Of a stretch of 64,000 bases of DNA, positions 7,832 to 42,948 are shown one piece after another. Position 1 is the stretch's first letter; every line of letters begins with the position of its first letter. Made by a program: the position numbers and the translations under genes. A model generated the notes under the pieces. That model saw nothing but the letters and a program-made list of their open reading frames with translations. It was not told the origin of the DNA and did no database searches. The DNA is from Ruminococcaceae bacterium UBA5891 (GTDB lineage: Bacteria; Bacillota; Clostridia; Oscillospirales; Acutalibacteraceae): assembly GCA_002431945.1 (NCBI GenBank), contig DJET01000048.1, positions 446-64,445 of the forward strand. Direction: 5' to 3'.

Positions 7832-8734
7832 TCACTCCCATTTCTTAAATATCTTTTTATTGATAAGCAGCAGCACAATGCCGAAAAGTATACCTATACC
7901 GGCAAAAAACAGCCACATCATAGCGGAGCTTTGTCCGTAATTCTGATCATCGGTCAAAACCGTATATGCCTGCTTCATAACCTTGTTGGATTCGCCCATA
8001 CAAAAGTCAATGGCCGTAAAGCAGAGAACCAGATTTATTGTTGTACTCATCATCGGTGTGGTTATATACCAAAATTCTTCCCATTTAGTTGCGCCCTCCA
8101 CCTTTGAAACCTCATACAGCTGCTCCGGAATAGACTGAAGACCGGAAATAAACAGCACGATCTGAATACCGCTGTTCCAAACAAGGTTGAAAATATCTTC
8201 AACATATCCGAAAATAATGTTGCCGATATTTTGCGGAATTCCAAGGTCGTTAAATACCTCATTAAAATCTATAAGACCGCTTAAATAAATGCTGCTGCTT
8301 TCCGCGCCGCGCATAGCCTCCATAACAGGATCGCCCTTAATGTACTGCATAACAACGCCGGTTGTAATAATAACGGGAACAAAAAATATCGAACGGAAAA
8401 AGGCTCTCCCCCTGAATTTTCCGTTAAGCACAACGGCAACAATATAACTTAGTATAAATATTATCGGGATCTGATAAAGGAATGCGGTTACGGAATCTCC
8501 TATATTGTCTACATACATTGCGGATTCAAACAATATATATCGGTATTCCTCAAGTCCGAGAAATTCCATTTTCAAACCTGTTTCGGTCATACTCACCCTT
8601 GAAAACGAAAACAGAAACGATTGAAGCAAGGGCTTTGCAAAGAATAGTAAAAAACCGATTATCCACGGAACCATAAACAAAAAACCGTATATTTTCTTTT
8701 TTTGTTCATAGCTTGTTTTATATAGCTTTTTCAT
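7832..8734 (-). CDS. Sugar ABC transporter permease (CUT1, MalF-like)
   Basis: 300-aa multi-TM ORF with EAA-like loop EVSKVEGATKWEEFWYITTP. There is a 4-nt overlap with the upstream gene. Confidence 0.85.
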   Translation of the reverse strand: MKKLYKTSYEQKKKIYGFLFMVPWIIGFLLFFAKPLLQSFLFSFSRVSMTETGLKMEFLGLEEYRYILFESAMYVDNIGDSVTAFLYQIPIIFILSYIVAVVLNGKFRGRAFFRSIFFVPVIITTGVVMQYIKGDPVMEAMRGAESSSIYLSGLIDFNEVFNDLGIPQNIGNIIFGYVEDIFNLVWNSGIQIVLFISGLQSIPEQLYEVSKVEGATKWEEFWYITTPMMSTTINLVLCFTAIDFCMGESNKVMKQAYTVLTDDQNYGQSSAMMWLFFAGIGILFGIVLLLINKKIFKKWE

Positions 8735-10941
8735 TTACTATTCCCTTCTTTGCTTATAAAATCAAATCCCTTAACACTGCCGAAGGGTGTTACGGCGGTC
8801 TCGGCGCCGAAATTTACATATATTTCCGTACCGTTGGAAAATACGGTATGAGCAAGCTCGCCCTGTTTTTCGTATTTAAGAATTTGCGCGCCCTTCACCG
8901 ATCTTAAGGCTGTGTTATAGCGATTTGAAAAATCAATGATATCATTTTTAACATCGCGGAAAACTCCCGATGAAAGACCGCTGTTTGCCGTGAAAATATA
9001 CGAATTCTCAAAATTCCGAATAACCGTAAATTCCAATGCCTGACCGGTAGAAACCGCCTTAAGAAAGCTTTGAACCTTATCAGACGAAAGATTAACAGAC
9101 TGGCTTGTCAAAAGCTTACTGCCCTTAAATATCATTTGATAAAAAGGTATTTCGGCGTCTATAAAATTATAGCCTGAGCTTTTTTCGGGCGTATCGGTAA
9201 TAATGTCAGACTGCATTGCGGCGTATAAATTGGCGCCGGCGGTAGCAACAACGCCGTTTTTAAATCCGGACAATATTTTTGCCGCGTCCTGCGACATACG
9301 GTTTTTAGCATAATATTCAGTATCGTTGCAATCACCGTAAGCGTCTGTACCGAGGCTTGAAAACGAAACTCCGGAAAGCTTCCAATCGGAAATTTTATCC
9401 TTTAATTTTTCCCCTGCCGCTATAAGCTTATCCCTGCTGAGCATTAAATCTCCGCCGTCCTCTATTTGGTGAGTAACCATAGAGTAGCTTTTCTTTTGAG
9501 CCGCAATAAGATCGGCTGTTTTGGCACTGTCGTAATTCTTTGAAAAGCCGGAGGTTGAGCTGCGGAAATAAATCAGATCAAAATCCATAATCAACGGTAT
9601 GCCTTGCTTTTCGCAGCTTTGGTACAATTTATTCAATTTTTTTATGCTGCCCAATGCAGGATCTATTTTAAATCCGCCGGCAAGCTTTTTACCGTCAAGT
9701 CCGCCCTTACCGAAGCCGCTGAGCTTTACCGCTATATCCGCGTCGGTCCTGTCGGTCAATTCATTCAGCATTTGGGGTATCTCGTCAAGCCTTGTTGCTG
9801 CAGAAACCGAATTATAAGGAATACCCAAAAAGCTTTTGCTTACGTTAATTCCGCCGATAACATTAAGCATTATGCCTATGCTGCTTTCCTCTCCCGTAAG
9901 CCCTAAATAATCGCGGTATGCCGCCGCAACACCGTTATAGCTGTTTTCATATCCCTTTATCGGGCAATACCTTACCGACAGGTATTTTGCCTTAGCCTTA
10001 CTCAGCGTAACCTTTTTAACGGTAGCCGTTTTCTTATCCGCGCCCTTAATAACCGATTCCGCCGTGCTTCTTATTCGAAACGACGGGTAAACCGCAGAAT
10101 ATCCGATTTGGCTATCGCCCGCAACAGCGTTTATTTTTGCAAGCTCCGCACCGTTTTCGATAATACCCATAAGCGATCTGTTTCTATCCTTAACCGAAAA
10201 AACCGGCAGTCTTACTGTTTCGGTTTCGGTTAACTGCTGCATCGGCTGCGACGCAGCGTCGTCGCCGTAAACAGACTCGGAATAATTCCTTATATTGCGG
10301 GTTGTATCGTCAACATACATTAAGGCGCCGCAGCCCGATGGTACAAACAAATAAGAATCGGTATTGTTTTTTGCCGAAGCAAAATACGGCATTACGGCTA
10401 CCTCAAGGAGAATGTTATCGCCCTCGGTTATTTTATCCGCAAGTATTCGTGTTTCCAAGCCGTCGTCACAAAGAATGTAATCTACCGGAAGGGAAATTTC
10501 AGCGTCGCGGAAATAGTAAATTACCCTTACGCCGTTTTTGATCTTCAGGCTGTATACATCACCGTTTCTAACGGCGTCAAATGAATTTTCCGCAGCGCTG
10601 TCCATTGTGGTTTTATTGCTGTAGGTAATCACAAATGAGGAGCATAGATTCAATTCCTGATATTCGTTGCTGCGGTCACCCGAACGGTAGTAATCATAAG
10701 GCACAGAGGACCATACCTCGCCGTCGGCGTTGTCATACAGTAAAACCGCGCCTGCATCGCCGTCCCATAAAAGGCTGTAATTTTCATTTTCAGCCACAGC
10801 TCCCGTTTCCAAAACCTTTATTTCATCGGGCACCGAAAAGGGCTTGTTTGTATTTGCTTTGGCGCCGAAGCAACCCGATAGGGCAAGTGACATTACAACA
10901 GCCGTAAACAAAACAAATGCTTTTTTAAAATTCATTGCCAT
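8731..10941 (-). CDS. Large secreted lipoprotein of unknown function (DUF5696-like, possible glycan-active)
   Basis: 736-aa ORF with signal peptide and lipobox LALSGCFG. The family name is a recollection only. It lies between the two permease pairs. Confidence 0.5.
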   Translation of the reverse strand: MAMNFKKAFVLFTAVVMSLALSGCFGAKANTNKPFSVPDEIKVLETGAVAENENYSLLWDGDAGAVLLYDNADGEVWSSVPYDYYRSGDRSNEYQELNLCSSFVITYSNKTTMDSAAENSFDAVRNGDVYSLKIKNGVRVIYYFRDAEISLPVDYILCDDGLETRILADKITEGDNILLEVAVMPYFASAKNNTDSYLFVPSGCGALMYVDDTTRNIRNYSESVYGDDAASQPMQQLTETETVRLPVFSVKDRNRSLMGIIENGAELAKINAVAGDSQIGYSAVYPSFRIRSTAESVIKGADKKTATVKKVTLSKAKAKYLSVRYCPIKGYENSYNGVAAAYRDYLGLTGEESSIGIMLNVIGGINVSKSFLGIPYNSVSAATRLDEIPQMLNELTDRTDADIAVKLSGFGKGGLDGKKLAGGFKIDPALGSIKKLNKLYQSCEKQGIPLIMDFDLIYFRSSTSGFSKNYDSAKTADLIAAQKKSYSMVTHQIEDGGDLMLSRDKLIAAGEKLKDKISDWKLSGVSFSSLGTDAYGDCNDTEYYAKNRMSQDAAKILSGFKNGVVATAGANLYAAMQSDIITDTPEKSSGYNFIDAEIPFYQMIFKGSKLLTSQSVNLSSDKVQSFLKAVSTGQALEFTVIRNFENSYIFTANSGLSSGVFRDVKNDIIDFSNRYNTALRSVKGAQILKYEKQGELAHTVFSNGTEIYVNFGAETAVTPFGSVKGFDFISKEGNSK

Positions 10942-10948
10942 ATCACCC

Positions 10949-13090
10949 TTACCTCAGCATTGCTTCCTTAATTATTCCCATAACAAAGCCCAAAAGATCC
11001 TGTCCTAACGTCAGCATAATAAACGCTATAAACAGCACTATTCCCATTCCTATAACAATTACAATGCCAAGACCCAGCGCCTTTGTAAAGCTGAAATCGT
11101 GTACCACTGTTATAGAAAGTAAAATCCACACAATAAATACCGCCGTAAATGCCGTTTTAATCAGTGTAAATCCGGCGTTAGACGTGGGTATTATTATATA
11201 AGAGGCTATTAAATAAAAAACCGAATACAGAATTAAAGGCTGCAGGCAATAACAGCCCGTACAGTAAATGCTTCTGAGATTACCCTTGCCCTCAAACAAA
11301 ACGCATGCCAGCCAGTTTATTATTACATAAAGCAACACTAAGCCGACCGTTCCGAACAGGGTATAAATTGCATTAAAATCAGAAATGTTCACTATATTAT
11401 ACATAAATCCGCCGAAAAGTGCGGAGCTTACCGTTGCTACATAGAACAGTATTAAATGTACGGTTGCAATCACCATAGAACCCTTATTTTCGTTTCGCAC
11501 CGCAGAAAAGACCTCTATCGGATGGCTTAAGGTCTTCAGCGCTGCCTTAAGCTTTTCATTTTTGATAAGCGTTATGCCTTTTTTTCTGCATTTTCTAAGC
11601 GCAATTACGGCAGCTGTAATAACCGTAACGACAATTATAAGCACCCACCAAAGATTTTCGCGCACAAATCGGTTACGAACCGCCTTATATGCCTGCGAAT
11701 ATGTAGCCTGATCCAGACCGCTCTTTGCATATGCCATTGATTCGTCGTATTTTTCTTCCGAAAGGCTTGCCTTCGCAAGACCGATATATGCCAACTGGCA
11801 GTTTTTATCCTGTGCGTTAACAGCCTCCCAATAGGGCTTTGCTTTAGCGTATTCGCCCTGATTGGTTAAGGTTTGCGCCGTTTTAAAGCACTTGCCGAAC
11901 TCATTTATACGGAATATCGTTAAATTGCCGTTCACTAAATCCAATACAACCAAATCTTCACCGCGGCAGGTAACCGAACCCGGCGTAACAAACGTGCCTA
12001 CCTGATTGCCTAAGCCCGTACCGCCACCGAAAACAGTCAAAAGATTACAGTTGCTGTCATACATATATATCCTGCCTTGGGTAGAGTCCAAAGCATAGAT
12101 ATAACCCTCATTATCGGTTGTTACGGCGTTTATTTTCTGACTGACGGGAACGCCGTAAGCCGAGGTTTTTTCAACATATGAATTCGGGAAATCGCCGAAG
12201 TTGTATTGATCGCCCTCCACAACGTCAAACTGCTCGGCTGCCCGCAAAATATTAGCTCCCGTGGGGGCAAACATCTTTATTTGACCGACGTCCTCCCCTA
12301 TTACGCCGCAAATAAATCCGTCATAGCTCATAGATATATCGGATAACTGATAAGGCAGCTTTTTCGCAGTGCCGTCGTGCTTCTCCTTTGTTTCAAAAGC
12401 AGATGTCAGCCAATCCTTAAGAGCGCCGAAAACAGTCGTCGCCACCTTATTGGCACCGAAGAATCCTAAAAAGTCGCCGTTTTTGGAAAATACCATTAAC
12501 CCGTAATACGAGCCTTCACACAAAACGTAAAGATAGCCGTTCTTATCCTTTTCAACTCTGATCGGCGTATAAGAAAAATCGGCGGGAATTATCGAAGAAT
12601 CAGGCTTTAATATAATATCCTTAACCTCTTCGTCCTTACAGCAAAGCACGCGTTCGTTTTCGGTATCCGCAACGTACAGAAGCCCCTCGCTGTCCACATA
12701 TATTCCCTTTGCGCCCGAAAATGTATATTCATTGCCGCCTCCGCTCAGGGATTTAATGCTTTTTACAAGCTTATATTCGGAATTGAAAATATAAATTATA
12801 CCCTGCTTGCCGTCAAGCAAATACGTGTTGTTCTCTTTATCACTGCATACATATTCAAAAGAGCTATTTTCCTGCTTTACAAACGAAAGATCGATAACCC
12901 TGTAAGGATTAAAAAGCGCCTTTGTCTCCACAGGCTTTTTATTGGTAAAACCGGTCCAGTAGGTGTAATTAGTGTAAGGCACACGGTCATTTTCAACCGT
13001 TGCTGCACCGACGCTAAGGCAGAAAAAAAGCATTACCGCCGCTATCAGCGCCCCAACGGTTTTAAAAAACGAAAAATGCCGTTTCAACAT
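10949..13090 (-). CDS. NHL-repeat beta-propeller / Yip1-domain integral membrane fusion protein
   Basis: 713-aa ORF. N-terminal signal/TM and repeated NHL-like strands (LYVADTENERVL, IYALDSTQGRIYMYD, LVVLDLVNGNLTIF). The C-terminal ~220 aa has five hydrophobic helices resembling a Yip1 domain. Confidence 0.6.
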   Translation of the reverse strand: MLKRHFSFFKTVGALIAAVMLFFCLSVGAATVENDRVPYTNYTYWTGFTNKKPVETKALFNPYRVIDLSFVKQENSSFEYVCSDKENNTYLLDGKQGIIYIFNSEYKLVKSIKSLSGGGNEYTFSGAKGIYVDSEGLLYVADTENERVLCCKDEEVKDIILKPDSSIIPADFSYTPIRVEKDKNGYLYVLCEGSYYGLMVFSKNGDFLGFFGANKVATTVFGALKDWLTSAFETKEKHDGTAKKLPYQLSDISMSYDGFICGVIGEDVGQIKMFAPTGANILRAAEQFDVVEGDQYNFGDFPNSYVEKTSAYGVPVSQKINAVTTDNEGYIYALDSTQGRIYMYDSNCNLLTVFGGGTGLGNQVGTFVTPGSVTCRGEDLVVLDLVNGNLTIFRINEFGKCFKTAQTLTNQGEYAKAKPYWEAVNAQDKNCQLAYIGLAKASLSEEKYDESMAYAKSGLDQATYSQAYKAVRNRFVRENLWWVLIIVVTVITAAVIALRKCRKKGITLIKNEKLKAALKTLSHPIEVFSAVRNENKGSMVIATVHLILFYVATVSSALFGGFMYNIVNISDFNAIYTLFGTVGLVLLYVIINWLACVLFEGKGNLRSIYCTGCYCLQPLILYSVFYLIASYIIIPTSNAGFTLIKTAFTAVFIVWILLSITVVHDFSFTKALGLGIVIVIGMGIVLFIAFIMLTLGQDLLGFVMGIIKEAMLR

Positions 13091-14943: not shown

Positions 14944-17790
14944 TTATGAATAGGCATTTATCTTACGCTCAATTTCCTCATTGGCATAATCTGCGGCCTT
15001 TATAAGTGCGTCTTTTACATTTTCACCCTTGTTGTAGACCTTCCAAAAGGCTTGGTCTACTGCACGGGCAACAAAGTAGCTTCCCGGAACCTCGGGAATT
15101 TCTTTAATATATTTACGCTGAAGATTAAGAATTTCAAGGTCATTATAATCCCAGCCCATATTTTCAAACGCCTCGGTATTGGCGGTAGCAATTCTTGAGA
15201 TCGTACCTAAAATCGACTCGACTTCATTATTATATAAAAGCTGCGTATCGGCGTCTGTCCACCATTTAAGGAATTCCCATGCGCTTTTTACATTTTTTGA
15301 AGTATTTAATATGGCGCAGCCCGCGCCGCTTCCCGAAACAGTGTGATCTATATTGCCGTTTTCATCACGGGTTCCGGGAATAAGGGCAATGCCCCACTTT
15401 CCGTCTATTTCGGGCGCCATATCCTTAAGCTGTGTATAAACCGTATAATCGGAAATTCCCAAAGGCGTAATACCTATTCTGAAACGGTTATAAAACGAAA
15501 CCGAAACAGGCAGCTTATACTTAGTATAAAAAGAAGACCAGAACGAAAACGATGAAAGAGCAATAGGATCGTCTAACAGGCATTTGTTTTTATCCTCATT
15601 GTAAAATGAACCGCCGTTCTGCTGATAAACAGAGGCAAACATATTCAACCCGCCGATACCGGTATTGACCGTTGTTGACGAGGTTATCTGAACATACGGC
15701 ACCCACGTTTCCATATTGCTCATTCTAAGCACTGTCGACGTCGCTAAAAATTCGTCCCACGTTTCAGGAACGCTCAGTCCCAGTCTTTCAAAAATATCTC
15801 TTCGGTAAAACATAATATAAAACGACTGCGTTTCAGGTAAGGCATAGGTGCCGTTTTTATATTCGTAAGGAACGGTAGCCGTTGAGGCAAATCGTTCCTT
15901 TACCGATTGAAAATCCTCAAATTCCTCTAAATTTCTTACGGCTCCTCTGAGCGCAAAGTTAACAGGCTCGGTTCTTGAAAGGTTCAGCGCAACATCGGGC
16001 GCATTGCCTGTCAGCATACCGTTGATTATAGAGGCGCTTGTAAGCTCTACATGAACGTTTATTCCCGTTTTTGGAACAAACGAGGTATTTATAAGAGAAT
16101 TAAGCGCCATGGCCTGGTCTCTGCCCCAGTTCACCCAAAGAACAATGCTCTCGCCTTCATCTTTTTCCGAATCGGTCTTGTCGTAACCGTCAACAAACGA
16201 CGCAAAAAAGCGCTTAAAATTATAACTAAGCCTTGTAAAGAAAGCGGGCTTGGCGTATTCCGCCTTAGCGCCTGCGGGCGTAATTAAAATTCGGTCAAGG
16301 CTTAAAGGCATTACATTCATATTACTGAGCGAGGAGGAAAGCGATGAATAATTCGAATAAAAATCCGAAATATAATCCTCTGCCTTATAAATGTTTTTAA
16401 TCATATTAGCCACAACACGGTTTGTATTTACAAGCACCGAAATTTGGGAATTGGTTTTTTGACCCGAAATTTTCTTAAGCTCGTCAGCCGCTTTATCAAG
16501 CCTGCTGTTATAATATTTAAGCTTTTCTTCAAAGCCGTCGATCTGTTCATAAAGATTATAGTCGCGGTTGGGATCCGGCGATTCTCCGGTAATCATTATT
16601 ACGCTTAAATAAAGCTCTCTGAGTCCCGAAAGAATTTCCCTTATATCCTTATATACATTCGCCGTTTCCCCCAAGGTGACCTTTAACGATAATATATGGT
16701 CGCCTTCGGAAAGATAAATATCATATGCCCGTTCACTGTCTGCAAATTCATAAAGCTTCCATGAATTGCAATGTGAAAATCTGAGGTTTTCGGCTTCCTT
16801 AAACGGAGTAACCCCGTCTATCTTCAAAGAACGGTAAGCAAATCCGTTTTGAATTTGATCCTGATTATATATAAAACCGAAATTGTAAAGTCCCGGTTTT
16901 TCCACATGGAATTTCCATGTAATTTCTTCGTTTGTGTTTTGCCAGTTTGTATTTCCTATGTAGTTTATAACACGCTTCATAGGATCGTTGGGAGAAAGCC
17001 ATGCCGAATTATCGGACTTGGAGATAATTGATCTGGAATTTTTAAGAACTGCATTTTCGGCTTCTATAACTATACCCTGAGCGTCGGCTGACTTATAGCC
17101 CTTTTCTCTGTATTCATTTTCAACTTCATTATAGCTTTTAACATTTTCAATGCCTGAAATATTTATTTCAGACAGCACCAGCTCGCTGCTGTTTACTTTT
17201 AACGTTACAGTATTTTCACCCTCTGTAAAACAGAAGGCATAGGGATCTGTAACCACGCCCGAAACATCAAAAAGTGAAACTGTCACAAAGCCGTCATACG
17301 GCTTTTGCTGCGGGGCAATTTGATTGCCCATAGAATCGCTGCGGATATCTCCGTCATTTTCCCAATAACAGAAAAGCCGCATATTCTGCGCGCCCTCAAA
17401 CGGAATTACACCGTTTACAAAAAGTGATAATCCCGCTTCCTTGGCGGCGTCGGCTGATATTTTATAGTTAAGATTTATATTATAAAGACCGCTCTTCGGC
17501 ACGTTTACTTTATATGTAACCGACGTACCGCCCGAAATGCTGACGGCCTTATTTTCAGCAGTATTGACTGCACCGTCGGCTCCGATAAAATCGCAGCCGT
17601 TTATTTTTATATTTTCCGCATCGGACACAGGGGACTTACCGTGAATATAAGCGTCATAGTCCATATAATCCGCGTCGGTATTATTATCATTTTTAATATT
17701 TTCGGCACTATCGGAAACCGAAAATACATTAAGCGGTATAACCGCCGCTGTTAATACCAACACGGCTAATATTGCCATTATCTTTTTCAC
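14944..17790 (-). CDS. Extracellular solute-binding protein fused to N-terminal carbohydrate-binding-like modules
   Basis: 948-aa ORF with signal peptide. The N-terminal ~380 aa contains two similar beta-sandwich-like segments (GLYNINLNYK... / GLYNFGFIYN...). The C-terminal ~430 aa looks like a family-1 sugar SBP. It sits directly upstream of a permease pair. Confidence 0.7.
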   Translation of the reverse strand: MKKIMAILAVLVLTAAVIPLNVFSVSDSAENIKNDNNTDADYMDYDAYIHGKSPVSDAENIKINGCDFIGADGAVNTAENKAVSISGGTSVTYKVNVPKSGLYNINLNYKISADAAKEAGLSLFVNGVIPFEGAQNMRLFCYWENDGDIRSDSMGNQIAPQQKPYDGFVTVSLFDVSGVVTDPYAFCFTEGENTVTLKVNSSELVLSEINISGIENVKSYNEVENEYREKGYKSADAQGIVIEAENAVLKNSRSIISKSDNSAWLSPNDPMKRVINYIGNTNWQNTNEEITWKFHVEKPGLYNFGFIYNQDQIQNGFAYRSLKIDGVTPFKEAENLRFSHCNSWKLYEFADSERAYDIYLSEGDHILSLKVTLGETANVYKDIREILSGLRELYLSVIMITGESPDPNRDYNLYEQIDGFEEKLKYYNSRLDKAADELKKISGQKTNSQISVLVNTNRVVANMIKNIYKAEDYISDFYSNYSSLSSSLSNMNVMPLSLDRILITPAGAKAEYAKPAFFTRLSYNFKRFFASFVDGYDKTDSEKDEGESIVLWVNWGRDQAMALNSLINTSFVPKTGINVHVELTSASIINGMLTGNAPDVALNLSRTEPVNFALRGAVRNLEEFEDFQSVKERFASTATVPYEYKNGTYALPETQSFYIMFYRRDIFERLGLSVPETWDEFLATSTVLRMSNMETWVPYVQITSSTTVNTGIGGLNMFASVYQQNGGSFYNEDKNKCLLDDPIALSSFSFWSSFYTKYKLPVSVSFYNRFRIGITPLGISDYTVYTQLKDMAPEIDGKWGIALIPGTRDENGNIDHTVSGSGAGCAILNTSKNVKSAWEFLKWWTDADTQLLYNNEVESILGTISRIATANTEAFENMGWDYNDLEILNLQRKYIKEIPEVPGSYFVARAVDQAFWKVYNKGENVKDALIKAADYANEEIERKINAYS

Positions 17791-17830: not shown

Positions 17831-18811
17831 TTATTTCTTATTTCTTGCTTTTTTTGCGGCAAGGAATAAAATAACAAATCCCAAAACAACCAAAACACAA
17901 ATTCCGATTATGATCCAAAGCCACGGAAATTCCTGTTTTTCGTCCGCCTGTGCGGCGCCTTCCTTTGGCTGACGGGTAGTATAAATTTTATATGTTCGTT
18001 TAGAGCCGTCCTGTGCCTCTACCACAATACGGGTAATATTTTCGCCTATGTAGGGAAGATCGTCTCCTGTTATCGTAACCTTAGAGGTAGGGTCAACCGC
18101 CTCAGCCGTAATTTTTAATTTCTTAACATTATAAGGAACTACCGCCTTATAAATCTTAACATCAGAAGAAAATTCCGGCGTTATCTCGGCGTTGGCAACC
18201 TTAAGCGTTTTAAGACTGATAGAATCGTAAACATTGTTTTTGTCCGTTTCGCTGTTTTGTCCGTTATTTCGCGAAGATGTATAGCTGTTGTCCTTTTGAT
18301 TGCCGGAGCTGTTGTTTTTTTCCTCATTTACTGTTTGAGCTGCCGCGGTTTGAGCGAACGCTGCGTCGGCTATGCTTAAAACGCCTGTGCCTGCGGAAGC
18401 TGAAACGTCTGTTGCGGTAACGTTAAATTCGCCTGCCTTTTCAACCCTGAACGTAGCGGTCAGCATATCCGCTTTTACCTTAACGGGATTTTCCGTTGTC
18501 ATATCGCACATTACGAATTTTACAGAACCGTCCGATTTATTGTCGGTTAATTTCCAGCCGCCCGCAATATCCGAGCTTATTTCCTTTAGGGTGAGCATTG
18601 CCCCGTCATATTTCAAGGTTCCGTTAACGGCAATAATATCTTCCCTGTCAGGATTTTCTATTGAAAGCGTGATCTCTATTTCATCGCCCGAACGGACCGC
18701 AGAGGGTCCGCCGAGCTTTACCGATAATGAAGAAGCAGCATTAGCGGGGAAGGTCGAAAATACTCCGAGACAAGCAAATAAAATTAAAATCGCATTACGA
18801 ATTCTTTTCAT
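17831..18811 (-). CDS. Membrane-anchored cohesin-domain protein with cadherin-like beta-sandwich domain
   Basis: 326-aa ORF. It has a signal peptide and a ~130-aa cohesin-like module (GDEIEITLSIEN...LKYDGAMLTL...ATFRVEKAG). An Asn/Ser-rich linker follows, then a cadherin-like module (LKVANAEITPEFSSDVKIYKAVVP...) and a C-terminal TM helix with a basic tail. Confidence 0.6.
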   Translation of the reverse strand: MKRIRNAILILFACLGVFSTFPANAASSLSVKLGGPSAVRSGDEIEITLSIENPDREDIIAVNGTLKYDGAMLTLKEISSDIAGGWKLTDNKSDGSVKFVMCDMTTENPVKVKADMLTATFRVEKAGEFNVTATDVSASAGTGVLSIADAAFAQTAAAQTVNEEKNNSSGNQKDNSYTSSRNNGQNSETDKNNVYDSISLKTLKVANAEITPEFSSDVKIYKAVVPYNVKKLKITAEAVDPTSKVTITGDDLPYIGENITRIVVEAQDGSKRTYKIYTTRQPKEGAAQADEKQEFPWLWIIIGICVLVVLGFVILFLAAKKARNKK

Positions 18812-18823
18812 ATTCTCACCTCA

Positions 18824-21800
18824 TTATTTTAGCTTTACCTTGCCGTTTACCGCCAAAAGCAATACCGCAAGGTCATCAACGTCAATACCGGTTTTTCCGT
18901 TAACATTTGCCGCATACTCGCCGTAAACGTCAAGCCCTGCTTTTGTGCAAAGGTAATTTGCAAGTCTTTGTACGTCTTCCGTATTCACAGCCAGATTGCC
19001 GTCCGTATCGCCCAACATATACAGCGATACTCTGTGCTTGGTTTCAAAACCGTTCATAAGCGCAAACTGCATATCAATAGTAAGCGGTACGCTGTAATCC
19101 GTAATCTCGGTATTGCCCTTAAATACACGGATATATTCGTTGTGATCCAGCTTTTCAAGAACGGACTTAACCGTTTGGCCCAAGGTATAACCGATCATAA
19201 CATCACCGCTGACGGTAAATGTATCCGATGTAATTCTGTCGGGGAAATCATCAATTTCGTTAAGCGTCTTACCGTCGGAGGTTTTGAAGAGCTTGATGTT
19301 GTCAACATATGCCTCTCCTCCGCCGTCATATACGAAGAAGCCGACGCGCTTATAATCGCTTGTATTAAAGCTGAATGACGCTCTGGTCCATTTTGAATCT
19401 TCAGCAATATCTTCATCGCTGAACTCATACATTAAAATCTTATCCGGATGCCAGTAATTACCGTTGATCATACCGAAACCGCCGTTTCCTGCCTTAAGAA
19501 TACTGTATTCGGCAGTAAATGTATATTCGGTATTAGGCTCAACCTCGATCCACTTAATTAAGTATGTTTTCTTCGGATTACCGGTATATTTAAGGTTTGC
19601 GGTATAATGCATCGCTTTTCCTCTTGTGGTGCCGGTATTTTCGATTTGCGCGGTATAACCGTATGAACCTGCAGACTCCCAGAAGGAAATATCATCGTCT
19701 GAGAAATCACCGTTTTCAATAAGATTCTTGTTATCGTCACAGTCAAGCTTTTCAGGAGCGCTTGATGTAACGGTAACGCTTTTCATATCTCTTAAAGGAG
19801 GATTGTAAAGCTTTGCGTCGGTGCTCTCAAACAGGTACATATCGTCTACAAACAAAGACGAGCTTGCACCCTTAAAGCCGATACCGATCCTTTTGGCGTT
19901 TCCGCTGTTAAAGTTAAACCTTACAATATGGTATGCGTCGTCGCTGCTTACAAATAAGCCGTGAACCTCATAGTTGCGATTTGAAGTTTTAATGAACTCG
20001 CTGTTATACGGATCGACAATGCCAAAGCGGATATCGTTTTTATTTACCGAGTCTCTTTGTTCGGCTCTGGCAAAAACGGTAAAGTAATAATCCGTATTCG
20101 GTTTAACGTCAATATACATTATGTTCATTGTGGGCTTGGCAACATTCTGCGTTTTGAAATGTAAAGCCTTTTTGCCCGTATGCGCCTTATCGGTGGTAAC
20201 AGTAATATCCCCCGAACCCATAAGTGTGCTTTGATTCCAGTTGCCGTCTTCCTCAAAGCCGCCGTTGGTAATCAGGTTATCCGCATCATCGCAGATATAA
20301 GCTATACTCCAGGCGGTGCCTCTGTCTTCAAAACGTCTGTAACCACTTATCATATACGGAGCTACATAATCTCCGTTAAATTCCGTATCGGATTTATATT
20401 TCGGGTATAACAACGTAGTACCGCTCAGAATAGCGCCGCCGAATCTTTGAGAAAGCTTTTTGTCGATAGTCCACTCAACAAACTCGTCGTCAGGCAGGTC
20501 AGAAGCGTTCGGAATATTTGCTTCGGCTCCTACAGCGCCCGATATTCCCGTGTACTTTCCGTCGTTGTTCTTGTATATTATAAAACCGTCGTTTTCATTT
20601 ATAACCTCATTAACGGTTAAATCGTCTATATACATTTCAAAGCTGTTGCCTGCAGACTGTACGTAGAAGCAAAGATATTTATAGCTGTTGTCAACTACCG
20701 TGCCGGTATCGATTACCGTGCTGTACGTCGTCCACTCGGTATTGCCGGTAATTCCCGTAAGCGGTGCGGAACCGTTAAGACTCTTTTTGGCAGGATTTTC
20801 ACCGCCGTAAAAATTCCAGTTTGAAGCGTTGTTCCCAGCCATCAAATAGGGCTTGTTCGGTCTGCCGTTTAATTTATATTTAAATGTAACGGTATACTTT
20901 GTTTCAGGTCTTAACACAATATTATTAAAGCGTATCGGGAACTGAGCATATGCCGTACTTCCTGAAAATTTAACACTCTTGTTTTTGTATCCGTTTGCAA
21001 CAGATATACCGTCAAGAGCATAATGTATAGGATCGTTATCATTTTCAAAATCCTCTACAAAAAGCTCGTTTTGTTTAGCGCCGTATTCTGCGTAAAGCAG
21101 CGTTGTGCCTTCGGTGAACTTTCCGCCGAATTCCTGCGTTAAGCCTTTATCGGCATACCACTTTAAGAACTGCTTGCCGTCGGCGGAATCGGGACCGTTC
21201 GGTACGTTCGCGTCGGTGCCTACCGCGCCCGCTATCGCCTCGTAATCGCCGTCGCTGTTCTTATATATAACAACTCCGTCGGTATCGTTTGCGGTTTCAT
21301 AAACAGTAAAATCGTCTAAATACATTTCAAAGCTGTTACTGCCCGACTGCACGTAAAAGCAAAGGTATTTATAGCTGTCGTTTACAACAGTGCCGGTATC
21401 GATTACCGTGCTGTATGTCGTCCACTCGCTGTTGCCGGTAATTCCCGTAAGCGGCGTGGAACCGTTAAGGCTTTTTGCGGCAGGATTTTCGCCGCCGTAA
21501 AAATTCCAGTTTGAAGCGTTGTTCCCCGCCATTAAATAGGGCTTATTCGGTCTGCCGCTTAATTTATACTTAAAGGAAACGGCATACTTTGTGTTAGGCT
21601 TTAGCTCTATGTTATTAAGGCGAACCGGAAACTGAGCATACATTCCGCCCGTGTATTTAAGGGCGCTGTCCTCTTCAGTGCTTGTAACGGATATTCCGTC
21701 AAGAGCATAGTGTACGGGGTTCTCTCCCCCGAAGTCCTCTACAAAAAGGTCGTTTTGCTTAACGCCGTATTTTGCATAAAGCAACGTTGTGCCTTCGGTG

Positions 21801-23230
21801 AACTTTCCGCCGAATTCCTGCGTTAAGCCTTTATCGGTATACCACTTTAAGAACTGCTTGCCATCTGCGGAATCAGGTCCGTTCGGTACGTTCGCGTCGG
21901 TACCTACCGCGCCGGTTACCGCAGCATAATTACCCTCGCTGTTCTTATATATCACAACTCCGTCCGCTTCGTTTTCCACACGGCAAACCGTGAAATCGTC
22001 CAAATACATTTCAAAGCTGCTTCCGGCAGACTGTATGTAGAAGCAAAGGTATTTATAGCTGTCGTTTACAACAGTGCCCGTGTCGATTACCGTGCTGTAT
22101 GTCGTCCACTCGCTGTTGCCGGTAATTCCCGTAAGCGGTGTCGAACCGTTAAGGCTCTTTGCGGCAGGATTTTCGCCGCCGTAAAAATTCCAGTTTGAAG
22201 CGTTGTTTCCCGCCATCAAATAGGGCTTATTCGGTTTACCGCTTAATTTATATTTAAAAGAAACGGCATACTTGGTGTTGGGCTTTAGCTCTATGTTATT
22301 AAGGCGAACCGGAAACTGGGCATACATTCCGCCCGTATATTTAAGAACATTGCCCTCTTCCGAGTCTGTAACGGATATTCCGTCAAGAACATAATGTACG
22401 GGGTTATTTCCCTCAAAGTCCTCAACAAAAATCTCGTCACGTTTAGCGCCGTACTCTGCGTAAAGCAGCGTTGTGCCCTCGGTGAACTTTCCGCCGAATT
22501 CCTGCGTTAAGCCCTTATCGGTATACCACTTTAAGAACTGCTTGCCGTCGGCGGAATCGGGACCGTTCGGTACGTTAGCGTCTGCCCCTACCGCACCTGC
22601 TATTGCCGCATAATCGCCGTTGCTGCTCTTATATATAACAACTCCGTCGGTATCGTTTGCGGTTTCATAAACAGTAAAATCGTCTAAATACATTTCAAAG
22701 CTGCTGCCGGCAGACTGTATGTAGAAGCAAAGGTATTTATAGCTGTCGTTTACAACGGTGCCGGTATCGATTACCGTGCTGTATGTCGTCCACTCGCTGT
22801 TGCCGGTAATTCCCGTAAGCGGTGTCGAACCGTTAAGGCTTTTTGCGGCAGGATTTTCGCCGCCGTAAAAATTCCAGTTTGAAGCGTTGTTCCCCGCCAT
22901 CAAATAGGGCTTATTCGGTCTGCCGTTTAATTTATACTTAAAGGAAACGGCATACTTTGTGTTGGGCTTTAGCTCTATGTTATTAAGGCGAACCGGAAAC
23001 TGAGCATACATTCCGCCCGTGTATTTAAGGGCGCTGTCCTCTTCCGTGCTTGTAACGGATATTCCGTCAAGAACATAATGTACGGGGTTATTTCCCTCAA
23101 AATCTTCTACCTGCACATCATTTGAGGCCGCAAAGGCATTAAATCTGCCGCCCGAAACAGCTCCGGAGCAAACCGAACTGATTAAAACAGAAAGAGCGCA
23201 AAAAATACCGGCAATTCTTTTGATTTTCAT
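18824..23230 (-). CDS. Secreted multi-modular carbohydrate-binding protein with C-terminal dockerin
   Basis: 1468-aa ORF with signal peptide. It has four ~228-aa units, each a CBM-like module plus a Listeria/Bacteroides-type repeat (FLKWYTDKGLTQEFGGKFTEGTTLLYAEY). Two further CBM4_9-like modules follow (NLITNGGFEEDGNW, NLIENGDFSDDDISFW). The C-terminus carries duplicated dockerin Ca-loops (GDTDGNLAVNTEDV... / ANVNGKTGIDVDDL...). Confidence 0.75.
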   Translation of the reverse strand: MKIKRIAGIFCALSVLISSVCSGAVSGGRFNAFAASNDVQVEDFEGNNPVHYVLDGISVTSTEEDSALKYTGGMYAQFPVRLNNIELKPNTKYAVSFKYKLNGRPNKPYLMAGNNASNWNFYGGENPAAKSLNGSTPLTGITGNSEWTTYSTVIDTGTVVNDSYKYLCFYIQSAGSSFEMYLDDFTVYETANDTDGVVIYKSSNGDYAAIAGAVGADANVPNGPDSADGKQFLKWYTDKGLTQEFGGKFTEGTTLLYAEYGAKRDEIFVEDFEGNNPVHYVLDGISVTDSEEGNVLKYTGGMYAQFPVRLNNIELKPNTKYAVSFKYKLSGKPNKPYLMAGNNASNWNFYGGENPAAKSLNGSTPLTGITGNSEWTTYSTVIDTGTVVNDSYKYLCFYIQSAGSSFEMYLDDFTVCRVENEADGVVIYKNSEGNYAAVTGAVGTDANVPNGPDSADGKQFLKWYTDKGLTQEFGGKFTEGTTLLYAKYGVKQNDLFVEDFGGENPVHYALDGISVTSTEEDSALKYTGGMYAQFPVRLNNIELKPNTKYAVSFKYKLSGRPNKPYLMAGNNASNWNFYGGENPAAKSLNGSTPLTGITGNSEWTTYSTVIDTGTVVNDSYKYLCFYVQSGSNSFEMYLDDFTVYETANDTDGVVIYKNSDGDYEAIAGAVGTDANVPNGPDSADGKQFLKWYADKGLTQEFGGKFTEGTTLLYAEYGAKQNELFVEDFENDNDPIHYALDGISVANGYKNKSVKFSGSTAYAQFPIRFNNIVLRPETKYTVTFKYKLNGRPNKPYLMAGNNASNWNFYGGENPAKKSLNGSAPLTGITGNTEWTTYSTVIDTGTVVDNSYKYLCFYVQSAGNSFEMYIDDLTVNEVINENDGFIIYKNNDGKYTGISGAVGAEANIPNASDLPDDEFVEWTIDKKLSQRFGGAILSGTTLLYPKYKSDTEFNGDYVAPYMISGYRRFEDRGTAWSIAYICDDADNLITNGGFEEDGNWNQSTLMGSGDITVTTDKAHTGKKALHFKTQNVAKPTMNIMYIDVKPNTDYYFTVFARAEQRDSVNKNDIRFGIVDPYNSEFIKTSNRNYEVHGLFVSSDDAYHIVRFNFNSGNAKRIGIGFKGASSSLFVDDMYLFESTDAKLYNPPLRDMKSVTVTSSAPEKLDCDDNKNLIENGDFSDDDISFWESAGSYGYTAQIENTGTTRGKAMHYTANLKYTGNPKKTYLIKWIEVEPNTEYTFTAEYSILKAGNGGFGMINGNYWHPDKILMYEFSDEDIAEDSKWTRASFSFNTSDYKRVGFFVYDGGGEAYVDNIKLFKTSDGKTLNEIDDFPDRITSDTFTVSGDVMIGYTLGQTVKSVLEKLDHNEYIRVFKGNTEITDYSVPLTIDMQFALMNGFETKHRVSLYMLGDTDGNLAVNTEDVQRLANYLCTKAGLDVYGEYAANVNGKTGIDVDDLAVLLLAVNGKVKLK
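20377..23112 (-). repeat. Four tandem in-frame coding repeats, period 684 bp
   Basis: Landmark strings recur at exact 684-bp offsets (23094, 22410, ~21726, ~21042). Units 1-3 are near-identical at nucleotide level and unit 4 is more diverged. Confidence 0.9.
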
Positions 23231-37481: not shown

Positions 37482-40400
37482 TCAGCTTTTGTAGGATATT
37501 TCGCCTGCTTCGCCGGTCGGAGGTATTTTAAAGCTTGCCATAGCCTGCCAATAATTGCTGTTTAATACGGTAGGAACAGCGGTGCCGGTATGGTCGGAGT
37601 TATTATACACCACCTTGTAGGCGTAAAGGAAATCATTGGTTATATCCCTGTCGTCGTCGCACAAAAAAACATCGAGCTGAATATCAGAGTTTGATTTATT
37701 CGTGACGGTAATAATATACACGCCGTTTGCATAATCGGAGCTGTAATCGGGGTCATTCGAATCCATTTTCTTAAAGGACAGATTGACCGAAAAATTGTTC
37801 TGATTTGTTCCCTGCGGCGCCGTTGTTGAGAAAAGCAAAACCGAATAATTGTTTTCCCCAAGCCTTGCCGGAGCGGTGCGGTACTCGGTTTTAAAGGCGT
37901 TGGTTACGGCATTGCCCTCAGAGCTGATAACCTTTTTTATCGCTTCACCGCCGTTTGCGGCAATGTCAAGATAAATAAGGTATGCGCCGGTTTTACCGCT
38001 TACCGAGCCGAGGCAGTATTCGCCCTTGTTGCAGGGTATTTCAAAATAATATATGTTATTACCTTTGCGGTTGAATCCGGGATTTTTTATCCATTCGGTT
38101 TTAAAGACAGATTTATAATCCGAAATATCGACATCGGCAGAATATGTGTTGTCTTTAAACTTGTATACATAAGAGACTGCTGAGCCCTTTTCCTTATGCT
38201 CATATATTTCTTCAATTTCCTTAATGTCGGTTATTTTATTGTTTTCATCTCTGAAAACCTGATGAAGTGAGAAGAATGAGTTGTTGCCTGTAAAATAATC
38301 GCCCGCAAAAAAGTTAATTGAGCCTCTTTCAATAACATTAAAGTCAATGCTGTCCATCGGCATTTCGTAATTATCGTATTCCTTGCCTAAAACAACCGCT
38401 TTTTCGGCAGTTACAAGATAATCCTTGGAAATTTTAGCGTCCATAAAGTGCAGCCCGTAAACAGAAGTGGAACCATCAAGCGTATCAAGCAGCTGTTTTG
38501 ACGCCGTTTGGTAAGCCGGAGAATTTGCGGTGTATGAATGTTTTCCGTTTCCGTCAACCGTATAAATAGTTTTGAAAGCTTCGGGATCTTCAGTATCATA
38601 AGAACCGCTTACAGAGCTTATCGAGAAGTATGAAATACGTATATCTCCGTATGCTTTCTGACCATCATCTGTGGCTGTTGAATCCTCCAAGCGTGCGCCG
38701 CTTATAATATATCCCGTGTTTTTTTGCGAAACCTTAAAAGGATCCGCAGCGTCGTACCAACCGTTTTCATTTTCGTCTGCAATTCTAAGCGGGAAGTAAG
38801 ACTGATATCCGCCGATAACATTTGTCTTTGTTTCTTTTGTAATTCTTTTTTGAGTGGTCTTTTCAAAATCAAGGCTGTAATCAACCGTAATGGGATTTGA
38901 AATATTAACATTCGGTGAAGGAACGACCTTTTCCTGCACTGCAATTTCCGGAAGATTATCCGAACGGGCTTCTGCCGCAACGTGTTCAAAAATCGGTGTA
39001 AAAGTAAGCGTAGTCCCCGTTGTGTTTAAATCCTTCCACGAATTGTTTGTTGTGATATAAAAATTAGCGTTCTGACCCCAGCCACTATTTTTATTAACGT
39101 AAAGTTTATTGCCGTTATTTAACCAGTTTTCACCTGAATTATTACTGGTATTTAATGTATAAGAATAGCTGCCATACCAATTCCTGCTTCGGCTGACGCT
39201 AAGGTATTTTGTGGTTCCGTTTATTACGGTTGAGATAGTCCCGGAATAGGTGCTTGGATTTGAAAACGTCCATTTTGCGGCATTTGCTTGATTTGTTTCA
39301 TTTATTATGTTGCCGCTCGAATCGATACTCAAATAATTGTTACCGGAAGAAATTGTATACTTGGGGAGTGAAATCTTCCAACCGCCGTCATAAACAAGAT
39401 AATAATCGGTATTGTCCGCTCTTAAACATCCGTCGGCGGTAAAGGACCAATTTGTTGCGGTGTCAGCAAAAGAGCCGTTGCTCACCCCTAAATAATACTG
39501 AGAATTGTTAAAATTATAAGTGATGTTACCGGAATCGGAGTTTGAAAAATAAAAACGGGTTGCATTATCTGCCGTGGCATTTGAAAAGCTGTTGTTGCCG
39601 TCGGCCTTAAGGTAATTTCCGTTGCCGTCGGTTATAAGCTTATATTCAAGTGTAACCGCTTCCCAACCGTTATTATAACGGATATAATAATCCCTGCCGT
39701 TATTGGTATAATAGTATGAATTGCCGTCTTTTTTCCAGTTAAACGGGGTTTCGCTTACGGTAAGTCCGGAGTTAAAGCTTATATAATACGGTACGGAATT
39801 TATAAATGTATAAAACCTTATGCCGTTTGCGTCCTCTTCGGTCTGCCAAACAAGAGCGGTGTTCTCTGCGGCATTTTTAATGCTTTTTGTATCGGCAGAA
39901 AGGTAATTGTTATTGCCGTCGGTAATCAGCTTACCGATACAGGCGGCTTTCCAGCCGTTATCGTAAACCAGCCTGTATTTAACGCTCACATTGCCGAATG
40001 TGAGGGTTCTTGTAAAATATCCGTCGCTTTCAAGCGTCCATAAAATATCTTCGTCTTTTGTCGACTCGGTCAGCGCAAGACTGCCGTTTACGGTAAGATA
40101 ACAGCTCTTATCACCGATTTCGGTGCGAAATTTATACTTATCACCCGAAACGGTCACCTGCCATTTAACCGAACTGCTTTCGGAGCGCGCGTTTGCAATC
40201 TCGGCACCGCCCGTACCGTTTGTTGCCGAAAGGAAATTACCGTTGCCGTCTGAAATATAGCAGTATTGCGTAAAGGACGATATTCCCCATTCGGCGGAGC
40301 AGTTAAGATAATAGTCGATTCCGTTCACGGTTGTATAAAGCGCGTCTTGTTCATTGCGAATCCAAACCGTGCTTGCAGACTGCGATACCGTAACGCCGGA

Positions 40401-41831: not shown

Positions 41832-41836
41832 AGCCC

Positions 41837-42577
41837 TCACTCCTTAATTACTTCAATCGAAGAAATGTCGCCTTTGTACTGCGTGGTTTCGTTTTCACCG
41901 TCAAACGCTATATCCTTACTTTGAATTACATTCGAGTAATAATCAACCAAAATATATATTGCCCCGCCCTCGTCCATAGTAAGACTGTCTGTTTCAAAAG
42001 CGGTCCGCTTTTCGGTAATGCTTCCGTCTTGTTCGGTGATAAATAAGTAATCCGTATATTTATCATCGTTTTCAAGCTCTGTTACGGCGCTTTTATAAAT
42101 TTCCTCTTCTGTTCCCGTTAAATTAAGCGAAGCGGCGCGGAATTTTACCATATCCGAAATATAGTTAAGCTTGGCATCAGCGTCGGTGCAATTGAATTTA
42201 AGACGGAATTTATCGCCGCCGCTAAGCCCCTTTACCTCTATTTTTATTATAACCGCATTTTCTTCATTTCGGCTTGTAAACACGGTATCGTATTCATTAA
42301 GCGTTGCGTCGGTACCGGTATAAAAGCTATATTTAAACTTATCGCGGTCATATTCATTTTTATAAACGGTAAAGCCTAAAACGGAAAAATCCGAATCGTC
42401 AGCCGCGGTGATCGTCATATTGCTTGCGGTTACGGCATTACCGTTTGCAAACCAACCGAGAGAATTGTTTAAAAAAACAATAATCGCAAGGAGCAGAATC
42501 ACCGAAATTGCAATAAGAGAAGCAAACTGCATATACTGTTTTCTGGTTTGCAGAAAGCCCATTATCCTCTGTGCCAC
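41837..42577 (-). CDS. TasA/camelysin-like secreted protein (minor fibre subunit candidate)
   Basis: I place the start at GTG 42577, which sits 9 nt after RBS AAAGGAG (42593-42587) and immediately after the riboswitch terminator. N-terminal TM helix, then LGWFANGNAVTASNMTITAADD, which parallels the 251-aa protein. C-terminal AFDGENETTQYKGDISSIEVI resembles the TasA-family C-terminal strand motif. Confidence 0.6.
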   Translation of the reverse strand: MAQRIMGFLQTRKQYMQFASLIAISVILLLAIIVFLNNSLGWFANGNAVTASNMTITAADDSDFSVLGFTVYKNEYDRDKFKYSFYTGTDATLNEYDTVFTSRNEENAVIIKIEVKGLSGGDKFRLKFNCTDADAKLNYISDMVKFRAASLNLTGTEEEIYKSAVTELENDDKYTDYLFITEQDGSITEKRTAFETDSLTMDEGGAIYILVDYYSNVIQSKDIAFDGENETTQYKGDISSIEVIKE

Positions 42578-42600
42578 GGCGCCCCGCTCCTTTCCGTAAT

Positions 42601-42635
42601 ATAAAAGCCGTGCCGCATAACGAATGCGGCACGGC
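42601..42635 (-). terminator. Intrinsic terminator (expression platform of minus-strand riboswitch)
   Basis: The minus strand reads GCCGUGCCGCAU-UCGUU-AUGCGGCACGGC-UUUUAU, a 12-bp GC-rich stem plus a U-tract. Its 5' GCC overlaps the aptamer 3' end. Confidence 0.8.
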
Positions 42636-42910: not shown

Positions 42911-42948
42911 TTTTCAACGGGTCTAACGTTGTTTATTGCAGTTTTTTT
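42903..42948 (+). terminator. Intrinsic terminator (expression platform of copy B)
   Basis: CUGCAAU (42905-42911) pairs with AUUGCAG (42935-42941). There is an inner CAACG/CGUUG helix, followed by U7 (42942-48). The 5' arm overlaps the aptamer 3' strand. Confidence 0.8.

Follow-up and report, generated by a model that had tools for sequence, protein, structure and literature searches.

The P0001-P0002 gene pair

The window analyzed here is a stretch of 64,000 nucleotides (nt) from contig DJET01000048.1 of Ruminococcaceae bacterium UBA5891 (assembly GCA_002431945.1). On its minus strand, two adjacent open reading frames (ORFs) encode P0001, a secreted protein of 1468 amino acids (aa), and P0002, a 326-aa membrane protein with a single cohesin. 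The original prediction had read P0001 as a series of modules resembling carbohydrate-binding modules (CBMs) that ends in a dockerin and is tethered to the cell by the cohesin of its neighbor, next to an ATP-binding cassette (ABC) importer. Both genes were found where that prediction had placed them, with the following features.

18824..23230, minus strand: P0001, a 1468-aa secreted, non-catalytic, predicted glycan-binding array with an X module and a dockerin at its C-terminus (ORF and translation)
23126..23230, minus strand: P0001 signal peptide (aa 1-35, MKIKRIAGIFCALSVLISSVCSG...AFA/AS), read from the sequence; one hydrophobic N-terminal segment with a predicted cleavage site
20366..23110, minus strand: four tandem 228-aa units of P0001 (aa 41-268, 269-496, 497-724, and 725-~955), each made of a beta-sandwich with a sub-threshold CBM_4_9 match and a following Flg_new repeat
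19898..20278, minus strand: CBM_4_9 module 1 of P0001 (aa 985-1113), 28.2 bits alone versus a cut-off of 25.9
19331..19729, minus strand: CBM_4_9-like module 2 of P0001 (aa 1168-1300), 25.0 bits alone, slightly below the cut-off of 25.9
19022..19246, minus strand: X module of P0001 (aa 1329-1403), a small beta domain of ~75 aa ahead of the dockerin
18845..19012, minus strand: divergent dockerin of P0001 (aa 1407-1462) in two segments, GDTDGNLAVNTEDVQRLANYL ... ANVNGKTGIDVDDLAVLLLAV
18812..18823, minus strand: 12-nt spacer between P0001 and P0002 with a Shine-Dalgarno site, TAA tgaGGTGAGaata ATG, including GAGGTG (read from the sequence)
17831..18811, minus strand: P0002, a 326-aa membrane-anchored single-cohesin protein
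18383..18724, minus strand: cohesin module of P0002 (aa 30-143), PF00963, 42.2 bits versus a cut-off of 24.1 (44.4 bits in the genome scan)
17969..18199, minus strand: cadherin-like beta-sandwich of P0002 (aa 205-281), PF12733, 39.8 bits versus a cut-off of 24.2
17858..17926, minus strand: C-terminal transmembrane (TM) helix of P0002 (aa ~296-318), a single hydrophobic helix, with a basic tail, KKARNKK

P0002 has its own Shine-Dalgarno site and starts 12 nt past the end of P0001, and no terminator-like site was seen between the two genes, which are likely to be co-transcribed.

P0002 is a membrane-anchored single-cohesin protein

P0002 consists of an N-terminal signal peptide, the cohesin, a linker rich in N, S, and Q, the cadherin-like module, and the C-terminal TM helix (windows starting at aa 294-304 exceed 2.0 on the Kyte-Doolittle scale). 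A cohesin-like module, a cadherin-like module, and a TM anchor were what had been proposed for the gene next to P0001, and both modules scored well over their Pfam cut-offs. The cadherin-like module would probably act as a stalk between the membrane and the cohesin. An LPXTG-like motif is absent from P0002 and from the two other cohesin proteins of the genome, each of which ends in a TM helix and a basic tail; four sortases are present in the genome.

The best match to the P0002 cohesin among PDB sequences was the non-cellulosomal cohesin of Clostridium perfringens GH84C/NagJ (E value of 0.002). Fold was assessed on P0052, whose orthologous module shares 31% identity with P0002; AlphaFold2 (AF2) modeled this module with a predicted local distance difference test (pLDDT) score of about 81-93. 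The best Foldseek match of this model was 2jh2 (E value of 3e-8, target-normalized TM-score of 0.83, root mean square deviation [rmsd] of 2.0 Å), and most of the top matches were cohesins; the nine-stranded beta-sandwich fold of cohesins is thereby recovered on the orthologue, not on the window's own protein.

P0001 carries an amplified array of CBM-like modules

Repeat units 1 to 3 of P0001 share 88-93% identity at the protein level and 89-94% at the DNA level, and unit 4 stands at 66%. The units were defined by alignment; Tandem Repeats Finder reported none, the period of 684 nt being above its limit. Copy number varies among strains, with three units in variants of 1238 aa versus four in the 1468-aa form, and the 684-nt unit appears to be a recent tandem amplification. 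The unit is rare, with 54 matches at an E value of ≤1e-3 among 1.84 billion representatives. A single unit scored 18 bits for CBM_4_9, which is below threshold, and 20.5 bits for Flg_new.

The proposal that P0001 is built of CBM-like modules was borne out for the whole protein (CBM_4_9, 60.8 bits; Flg_new, 33.8 bits) and for module 1, but the N-terminal units taken individually stay sub-threshold. No catalytic family was found in P0001 with Pfam or NCBIfam, as had been expected of a dockerin protein without a catalytic domain. The C-terminal part (aa 978-1468) aligns with orthologues at 32-38% identity, and module 2 is conserved among them. The X module is conserved in all relatives (alignment A1) and was modeled by AF2 as a beta-rich domain with a pLDDT of about 87-96; it matched no Pfam family, and Foldseek gave no known fold.

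The C-terminus of P0001 as a divergent dockerin

The C-terminal 169 aa of P0001 are 35-38% identical (E values of 1e-16 to 1e-17) to proteins with a Pfam-significant Dockerin_1 segment. The aligned segments of these relatives scored 35.2 bits in P0052, 43.8 bits in P0053, and 27.7 bits in the positional orthologue P0046, and six of the seven members of the X-dockerin family pass as Dockerin_1. A profile of this family (alignment A1) matched PDB dockerins over both segments (E values of 4e-15 to 1e-7), and a phmmer search of PDB sequences with 67 residues returned dockerins as all of its top matches (E values of 0.002-0.005). A hidden Markov model (HMM) was built from ten Pfam-passing dockerins of this genome, excluding relatives of P0001, and run against 17,788 six-frame ORFs; it found the P0001 segment with an E value of 1.3e-5 (25 bits, 51 of 56 positions), and the next non-dockerin followed at 0.064.

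Type I dockerins have two duplicated segments of ~22 residues, in each of which a calcium-binding loop leads into a helix. Loop 1 of P0001 (DTDGNLAVNTED) has D, D, N, N, and D at positions 1, 3, 5, 9, and 12, the full calcium-ligand pattern. In the AF2 model of the X-dockerin (pLDDT of 82.8 overall and 65-79 in the dockerin), three helices were formed, with a helix after each loop, and the top Foldseek matches, though weak, were the dockerins 4uyq_B and 4uyp_B (probability of 0.96). Among strain variants, the dockerin segment is 97-100% conserved while the number of upstream repeats varies. The proposed two-segment dockerin, which lies at aa 1407-1462, is recovered by relatives, by the family profile, and by the own-genome HMM, but not by Pfam, where 13.4 bits fall short of the cut-off of 22.9. 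HMM searches for both modules had been suggested with the original prediction, which had counted a missing match as evidence against itself; the cohesin was found (42.2 bits), and Dockerin_1 was narrowly missed. Together, these comparisons argue that the P0001 C-terminus is a divergent but genuine dockerin homologue.

The pairing recurs in other species and as natural fusions

A cohesin protein 34-35% identical to P0002 is encoded at locus L001 (human-gut metagenome-assembled genome [MAG] GCA_902477205.1) and in two other assemblies. The gene order in L001 is a 994-aa CBM/X-dockerin protein, a cohesin-cadherin-TM protein, a long solute-binding protein (SBP), permeases, an NHL/Yip1 protein, and a DUF5696 protein; upstream lies an additional 1112-aa CBM protein with a degenerate dockerin, i.e., a second dockerin protein. 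The order of dockerin protein, cohesin, and long SBP is shared by L001, L003, and L004 at 34-38% identity. Among seven related-species loci, which were fetched by a match to the cadherin-like module or the cohesin, six have a dockerin-ending gene directly before the cohesin-cadherin-TM gene.

Four other species have, in the equivalent place ahead of the long SBP, one ORF for the CBM array, X module, dockerin, cohesin, cadherin-like module, and TM helix together. These fused ORFs come from separate assemblies (L006, encoding P0052 of 1642 aa; L007, encoding P0053 of 1588 aa; L077; and L087), and a linker of ~10 residues joins the dockerin to the cohesin. The alignment of P0002 with P0052 spans all of P0002 and the 334 C-terminal aa of P0052 (31% identity, E value of 3e-31). 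Judged by alignment, the fusions represent a classical Rosetta-stone link between P0001 and P0002, and the comparisons across species support a link far stronger than adjacency in one genome. In an AF2 model of the fused X-dockerin-cohesin segment of L006, the domains were confident and the linker was disordered (predicted template modeling [pTM] score of 0.64).

The core of long SBP, permeases, NHL/Yip1, and DUF5696 is frequent among gut MAGs of the Acutalibacteraceae and of other Oscillospirales and also occurs in Paenibacillus, Lederbergia, and Treponema. A cohesin is found in core loci only in the window, in the L001 type, and in the four fused loci, and about 65 of 80 species loci have neither a cohesin nor a dockerin within 10 kb. 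In a tree of the NHL/Yip1 protein, the six cohesin-bearing loci form one clade, in which the split and fused forms are sister groups. The SBP tree disagrees with the NHL/Yip1 tree on the placement of the window and L001, which makes the locus a mosaic, and the change between the two forms may have been a fusion or a fission. The conflict suggests recombination within the locus (window, L001, L006, L007, L077, and L087).

Cohesins, dockerins, and paralogous cassettes in the genome

The genome (2.4 Mb) encodes only three cohesin modules, one per protein, each in a protein with a signal peptide, a single cohesin, and a C-terminal TM helix. Each of the three genes (in the window and on contigs C10 and C79) directly abuts a dockerin gene. 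Given that dockerin genes number about 15 in a total of roughly 2,200, the chance of all three adjacencies is, as a rough estimate, 2.5e-6. The three cohesin-adjacent dockerins differ clearly in sequence.

The two other pairs have their own architectures. On C10 (3219-10819), a cohesin-TM protein is directly followed by a 1986-aa secreted protein whose dockerin occupies an unusual, N-terminal position, right behind the signal peptide. On C79 (21705-25016), as in L009-L015, an SH3_3 protein of ~590 aa with a terminal symmetric dockerin is followed by a cohesin/cadherin-like/TM protein of ~500 aa; the C79-type cohesin protein has an acidic cytoplasmic tail, and this two-gene module is widely conserved. 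Of 24 species of the genus that were sampled, 22 have matches to P0002, mainly to its cadherin-like part and in the ~500-aa frames of the C79 type.

By similarity, the own-genome neighbors of the P0001 dockerin are the small C63 dockerin, then those of C60 and C1. Other dockerin proteins of the genome carry domains of a polysaccharide lyase (PL8), a SASA-type esterase, and an AXE1 esterase. Small ORFs of ~100 aa with a signal peptide and a dockerin only lie at C1:13760-14068 and C63:72210-72569 and, in other loci, at L016:2688-2987, L017:9429-9734, L018:9463-9774, and L053:9362-9715.

A search of genome contigs for related loci seeded with P0002 gave no match; a second scan was seeded with the long-SBP alignment. 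Thirteen paralogous cassettes with a long CBM-extended SBP, two permeases, NHL/Yip1, and DUF5696 are present in the genome, on contigs C50, C1, C63, C71 (two), C38 (two), C59, C48, C65, C78, C9, and C60. Of the 15 dockerin genes, nine are located no more than 15 kb from a cassette, a zone that makes up 19% of the genome (binomial P of 5.6e-4). In the closest paralogous cassette, on C1 (SBP 49.5% identical), the slot of P0002 is held by a ~100-aa dockerin-only ORF, and in L016-L018, from species with the closest SBPs, a dockerin-only ORF likewise lies directly upstream of the long SBP. These small proteins are possibly competitors, caps, or remnants.

The pair lies in an ABC-type glycan utilization locus

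Around the pair, the window contains the following genes.

14944..17790, minus strand: P0003, a 948-aa SBP with a CBM-like N-terminal extension of ~540 aa
13103..14957, minus strand: two ABC permeases (BPD_transp_1)
8731..13090, minus strand: two genes that form the conserved cassette core, for an NHL/Yip1 membrane protein of 713 aa and a DUF5696 protein of 736 aa
23245..26761, minus strand: P0004 and P0005, upstream genes in the same operon-like block as P0001
27218..28084, plus strand: AraC-family regulator, divergent from the block

The pair had been placed directly upstream of an SBP and permease set, and P0003 and the two permeases do lie directly downstream of P0002. SBP_bac_1 scored 69.6 bits in Pfam at aa 575-850 of P0003, and its extension contains two weak stretches resembling CBM_35, Golvesin_C, or DUF5077. 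The long-SBP family is widespread: GTDB species genomes, among them those of Paenibacillus, Lederbergia, and Treponema, contain more than 580 related stretches. Among 83 related loci, 73-79 have the NHL-repeat/Yip1 protein (10949-13090, minus strand, in the window) and the DUF5696 protein (8731-10941, minus strand; 411.9 bits) alongside the long SBP; DUF5696 was not mentioned in the literature searched.

On the minus strand, the block runs from P0005 through P0004, P0001, P0002, P0003, two permeases, NHL/Yip1, and DUF5696 to two further permeases, followed by GH123, a NagB-like gene, two GFO/IDH/MocA oxidoreductases, and a NagA-like amidohydrolase. P0005 is a 508-aa SBP_bac_8 lipoprotein. P0004 (649 aa) has an N-terminal domain without a family and a CBM_4_9 module, and it lacks a dockerin; no PDB relative of P0004 and no NCBIfam name for its N-terminal domain were found. 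A GH5-like reading of motifs in that domain was a guess only and was dropped. The order of SBP8, P0004-like, and P0001-like genes is maintained in L006, L077, and L087, and L006 has an AraC gene at the position equivalent to that in the window. Beyond the divergent AraC gene lie a peptidase S51 gene, two GH38 alpha-mannosidase-family genes, and a GH2-like gene.

With two SBPs, four permeases, GH123, two GH38, one GH2-like, NagA- and NagB-like genes, and an AraC regulator, this is a Gram-positive ABC-type glycan utilization locus; no ATPase gene was found within the block in the window. A substrate containing mannose and N-acetylhexosamine (HexNAc) is likely because of the enzyme set of GH38, GH2-like, GH123, and NagA/NagB-like proteins.

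Farther along the window, a 1452-aa protein (37482-41840, minus strand) has a weak Fascin-like match as its only match and no dockerin; its gene is preceded and overlapped by a 266-aa ORF (41837-42637, minus strand) without a family match or a dockerin. A plus-strand block (42898-56209) encodes an EAL protein, several ORFs without a family, DUF2357, a Peptidase_S24-like protein, a second EAL protein (771 aa), and a GGDEF protein. It includes a large serine recombinase (54521-56209), and GC skew changes sign at this block, which may be a mobile or integrated element.

A candidate cognate pair and its alternatives

The reading that we favor, and hold to be probable, is that P0001 and P0002 form a cognate dockerin-cohesin pair that tethers P0001 at the cell surface beside the ABC importer. 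It is the interpretation of the original prediction, which the sequence comparisons support, and by analogy it resembles an anchoring cohesin with an X-dockerin binding protein, as in CttA-ScaE. Both proteins would be secreted by the Sec pathway. P0002 would be kept in the membrane by its C-terminal helix, with the cadherin-like stalk and the low-complexity linker raising its single cohesin. The X-dockerin of P0001 would plug into this cohesin, so that the array is held at the cell surface. There, the array may capture a glycan or glycoconjugate containing mannose and HexNAc, such as a host or fungal glycan of the N-glycan type, which would be passed to the CBM-extended SBP P0003 and the downstream ABC permeases.

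Several results weigh against this reading. The isolated P0001 C-terminus reached an E value of only 0.09 with Dockerin_1 (PF00404), the genome scan gave 12.5 bits, again below the cut-off, and a 140-aa X-dockerin piece had no Pfam match. This dockerin is the most divergent of its family and the sole one of seven below the Pfam cut-off. In loop 2 (NVNGKTGIDVDD), which has N, N, K, D, and D, a Lys replaces the calcium ligand at position 5. The Foldseek match of the X-dockerin model was weak by other measures (E value of 0.02, target-normalized TM-score of 0.40, rmsd of 12 Å). As to the ligand, the repeat unit is almost without relatives. The AF2 model of the fused segment gives no evidence of a fixed in-cis complex and none against docking in cis. 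About 15 dockerins stand against three cohesins in the genome, and the P0002 cohesin is therefore probably not exclusive to P0001. Tethering is also not the sole role of the contact, because the array is already covalently anchored in the fused relatives; there, the contact must do more, for example bring in the other dockerin protein encoded at the locus or join chains head to tail.

The surplus of dockerins bears on two further readings. The P0002 cohesin is probably shared among dockerins, and it may also accept those of its own genome that are most similar to the P0001 dockerin, namely the small C63 and C1 dockerin-only proteins and the C60 protein. It is conceivable, if doubtful, that the pair is one piece of a genome-wide plug-in system in which the variable dockerin proteins of the 13 cassettes, among them binding arrays, a PL8 lyase, esterases, and the ~100-aa dockerin-only proteins, compete for three membrane cohesins. 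We consider it unlikely that P0002 is a general anchor whose main clients are other dockerins, with P0001 being one of many or docking on the C10 or C79 cohesin. Such clients would be the C60 protein and the ~100-aa dockerin-only proteins, with the PL8 lyase and the esterases as less certain candidates, and the adjacency of the two genes would reflect shared regulation instead of an exclusive pairing. The number of dockerin ORFs, the ranking of C63, C60, and C1 as nearest to the P0001 dockerin, the clustering of dockerin genes near the cassettes, and the PL8, SASA, and AXE1 domains on other dockerin proteins all fit a general anchor. However, the fusions and the dockerin-then-cohesin order across species argue that the neighbor is at least one cognate partner, and each cohesin has its own adjacent dockerin gene, with clearly different dockerins.

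Self-assembly in place of anchoring, i.e., head-to-tail clustering of arrays on the membrane or bridging of cells, appears improbable. It would be obligatory in the fused orthologues, with one dockerin and one cohesin per chain, and the split form would keep P0001-P0002 heteromers. The fused proteins do hold both modules on a disordered linker, and the loci often encode a second dockerin protein (two dockerin proteins in L001, a 990-aa one in L006). Precedents exist in Amy4 of Ruminococcus bromii, which has both modules (PMC9112005), and in ScaH, whose dockerin binds its own cohesin (PMC5301203). In the window, however, chains would stop at a 1:1 complex because P0001 and P0002 each have only one of the two modules. 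Least probable is that the P0001 C-terminus is a decayed, non-binding dockerin. P0001 would in that case be lectin-like and either freely secreted or loosely associated with the wall, and the P0002 cohesin would serve otherwise. The lowest score of the family and the Lys in the second calcium loop speak for decay, but the segment is nearly invariant among strain variants that differ in upstream repeats, the first loop retains the full D-x-D-x-N...N..D ligand pattern, and the same GKTGID second loop, with Lys at position 5, occurs in the C63 dockerin, which passes Pfam.

As a cognate pair, P0001 and P0002 would be a minimal cohesin-dockerin system, one TM-anchored cohesin and one non-catalytic array, in the ABC glycan locus of an uncultured Acutalibacteraceae-like gut bacterium. 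Because fused and split forms both exist in nature, the origin of such pairs can be put to a clean test, and the fused forms raise the question of what job the contact has once a covalent linkage exists. Were the plug-in system true, the cell could swap which glycan-capture or glycan-degrading module sits at the surface near its importers, a Gram-positive, cohesin-based counterpart of Sus-like surface complexes, and in the relatives the fused proteins of anchor and array could form head-to-tail chains. Should the genome-wide pattern prove real, it would show how Gram-positive gut bacteria with small genomes organize surface glycan capture, a question much better answered for Bacteroidota than for Firmicutes.

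Comparison with known systems

Cohesin-dockerin systems are textbook material for cellulose and have lately been extended to starch and mucin, with scaffoldins anchored by sortase or by surface layer homology domains. The label "mini cellulosome-like" in the original prediction went too far: the genome has no multi-cohesin scaffoldin, and the term overstates the pair because it has a single cohesin and no enzyme domain. TM-anchored cohesins in ABC or N-glycan loci were not specifically described in the literature searched, a negative that holds for that literature alone.

The closest parallel is CttA-ScaE of Ruminococcus flavefaciens, in which a non-catalytic CBM protein with an X module-dockerin dyad binds the single cohesin of a surface anchor; both are encoded in the sca gene cluster, and CttA is thought to target the substrate and mediate adhesion (PMC5301203). 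P0001 likewise lacks a catalytic domain and combines CBMs with an X module-dockerin dyad at its C-terminus, and P0002 is a single-cohesin surface anchor encoded in the same cluster. ScaE, however, is attached covalently by sortase via LPXTG; in P0002 such a motif is absent, and a TM helix is present instead. ScaE also anchors a whole cellulosome via ScaB, for which the window genome has no multi-cohesin counterpart; its substrate is cellulose, and the sca cluster, unlike the window, is not an ABC-transporter locus. The nearest solved relatives of P0002 are C. perfringens cohesins rather than the type III cohesin of ScaE.

In the R. bromii amylosome, Sas20 uses its dockerin to attach to the second Sca5 cohesin (PMC9112005). 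Sas20 and Sas6, which a cell-anchored cohesin presents on the surface of this Gram-positive gut bacterium, resemble the proposed P0001 array in being non-enzymatic, glycan-binding dockerin proteins. Unlike P0002, Sca5 has two cohesins, starch-binding X25 modules, and a sortase signal, and its target is starch; neither an adjacent pair in an ABC locus nor a fused form was described for Sas20-Sca5 in the literature searched.

The C. perfringens GH84C/NagJ cohesins (2ozn, 2jh2, and 2o4e) are the closest solved relatives by sequence and, for the orthologous cohesin, by fold. They act on host-type glycans, not on the plant cell wall. Adams et al. reportedly described in 2008 that the C. perfringens cohesin forms part of a secreted enzyme and links enzymes together; the P0002 cohesin, in contrast, stands alone on a membrane-anchored stalk.

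Nearer in phylogeny is the mucinolysome of Limousia (Acutalibacteraceae), a host-glycan cohesin-dockerin system in gut bacteria whose genomes are small, at about 2 Mb (PMC12997984), which places such a system in the same bacterial family neighborhood. Mucinolysomes consist of multi-cohesin scaffoldins with dockerin-tagged mucin glycoside hydrolases, whereas here there are three single-cohesin TM proteins and a non-catalytic partner. The likeness to SusD, SusE, and SusF of the polysaccharide utilization loci of Bacteroidota is a functional analogy only: they are non-catalytic surface binders encoded next to an importer, but the proteins are unrelated, anchored in the outer membrane by lipid, and paired with a TonB-dependent transporter, without a cohesin-dockerin contact. 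Compared with the known tethers, the P0001-P0002 pair differs in its TM rather than sortase anchor, its single cohesin without a scaffoldin, its place in an ABC locus directed at neither cellulose nor starch, its C. perfringens-like cohesin, and its natural fusions.

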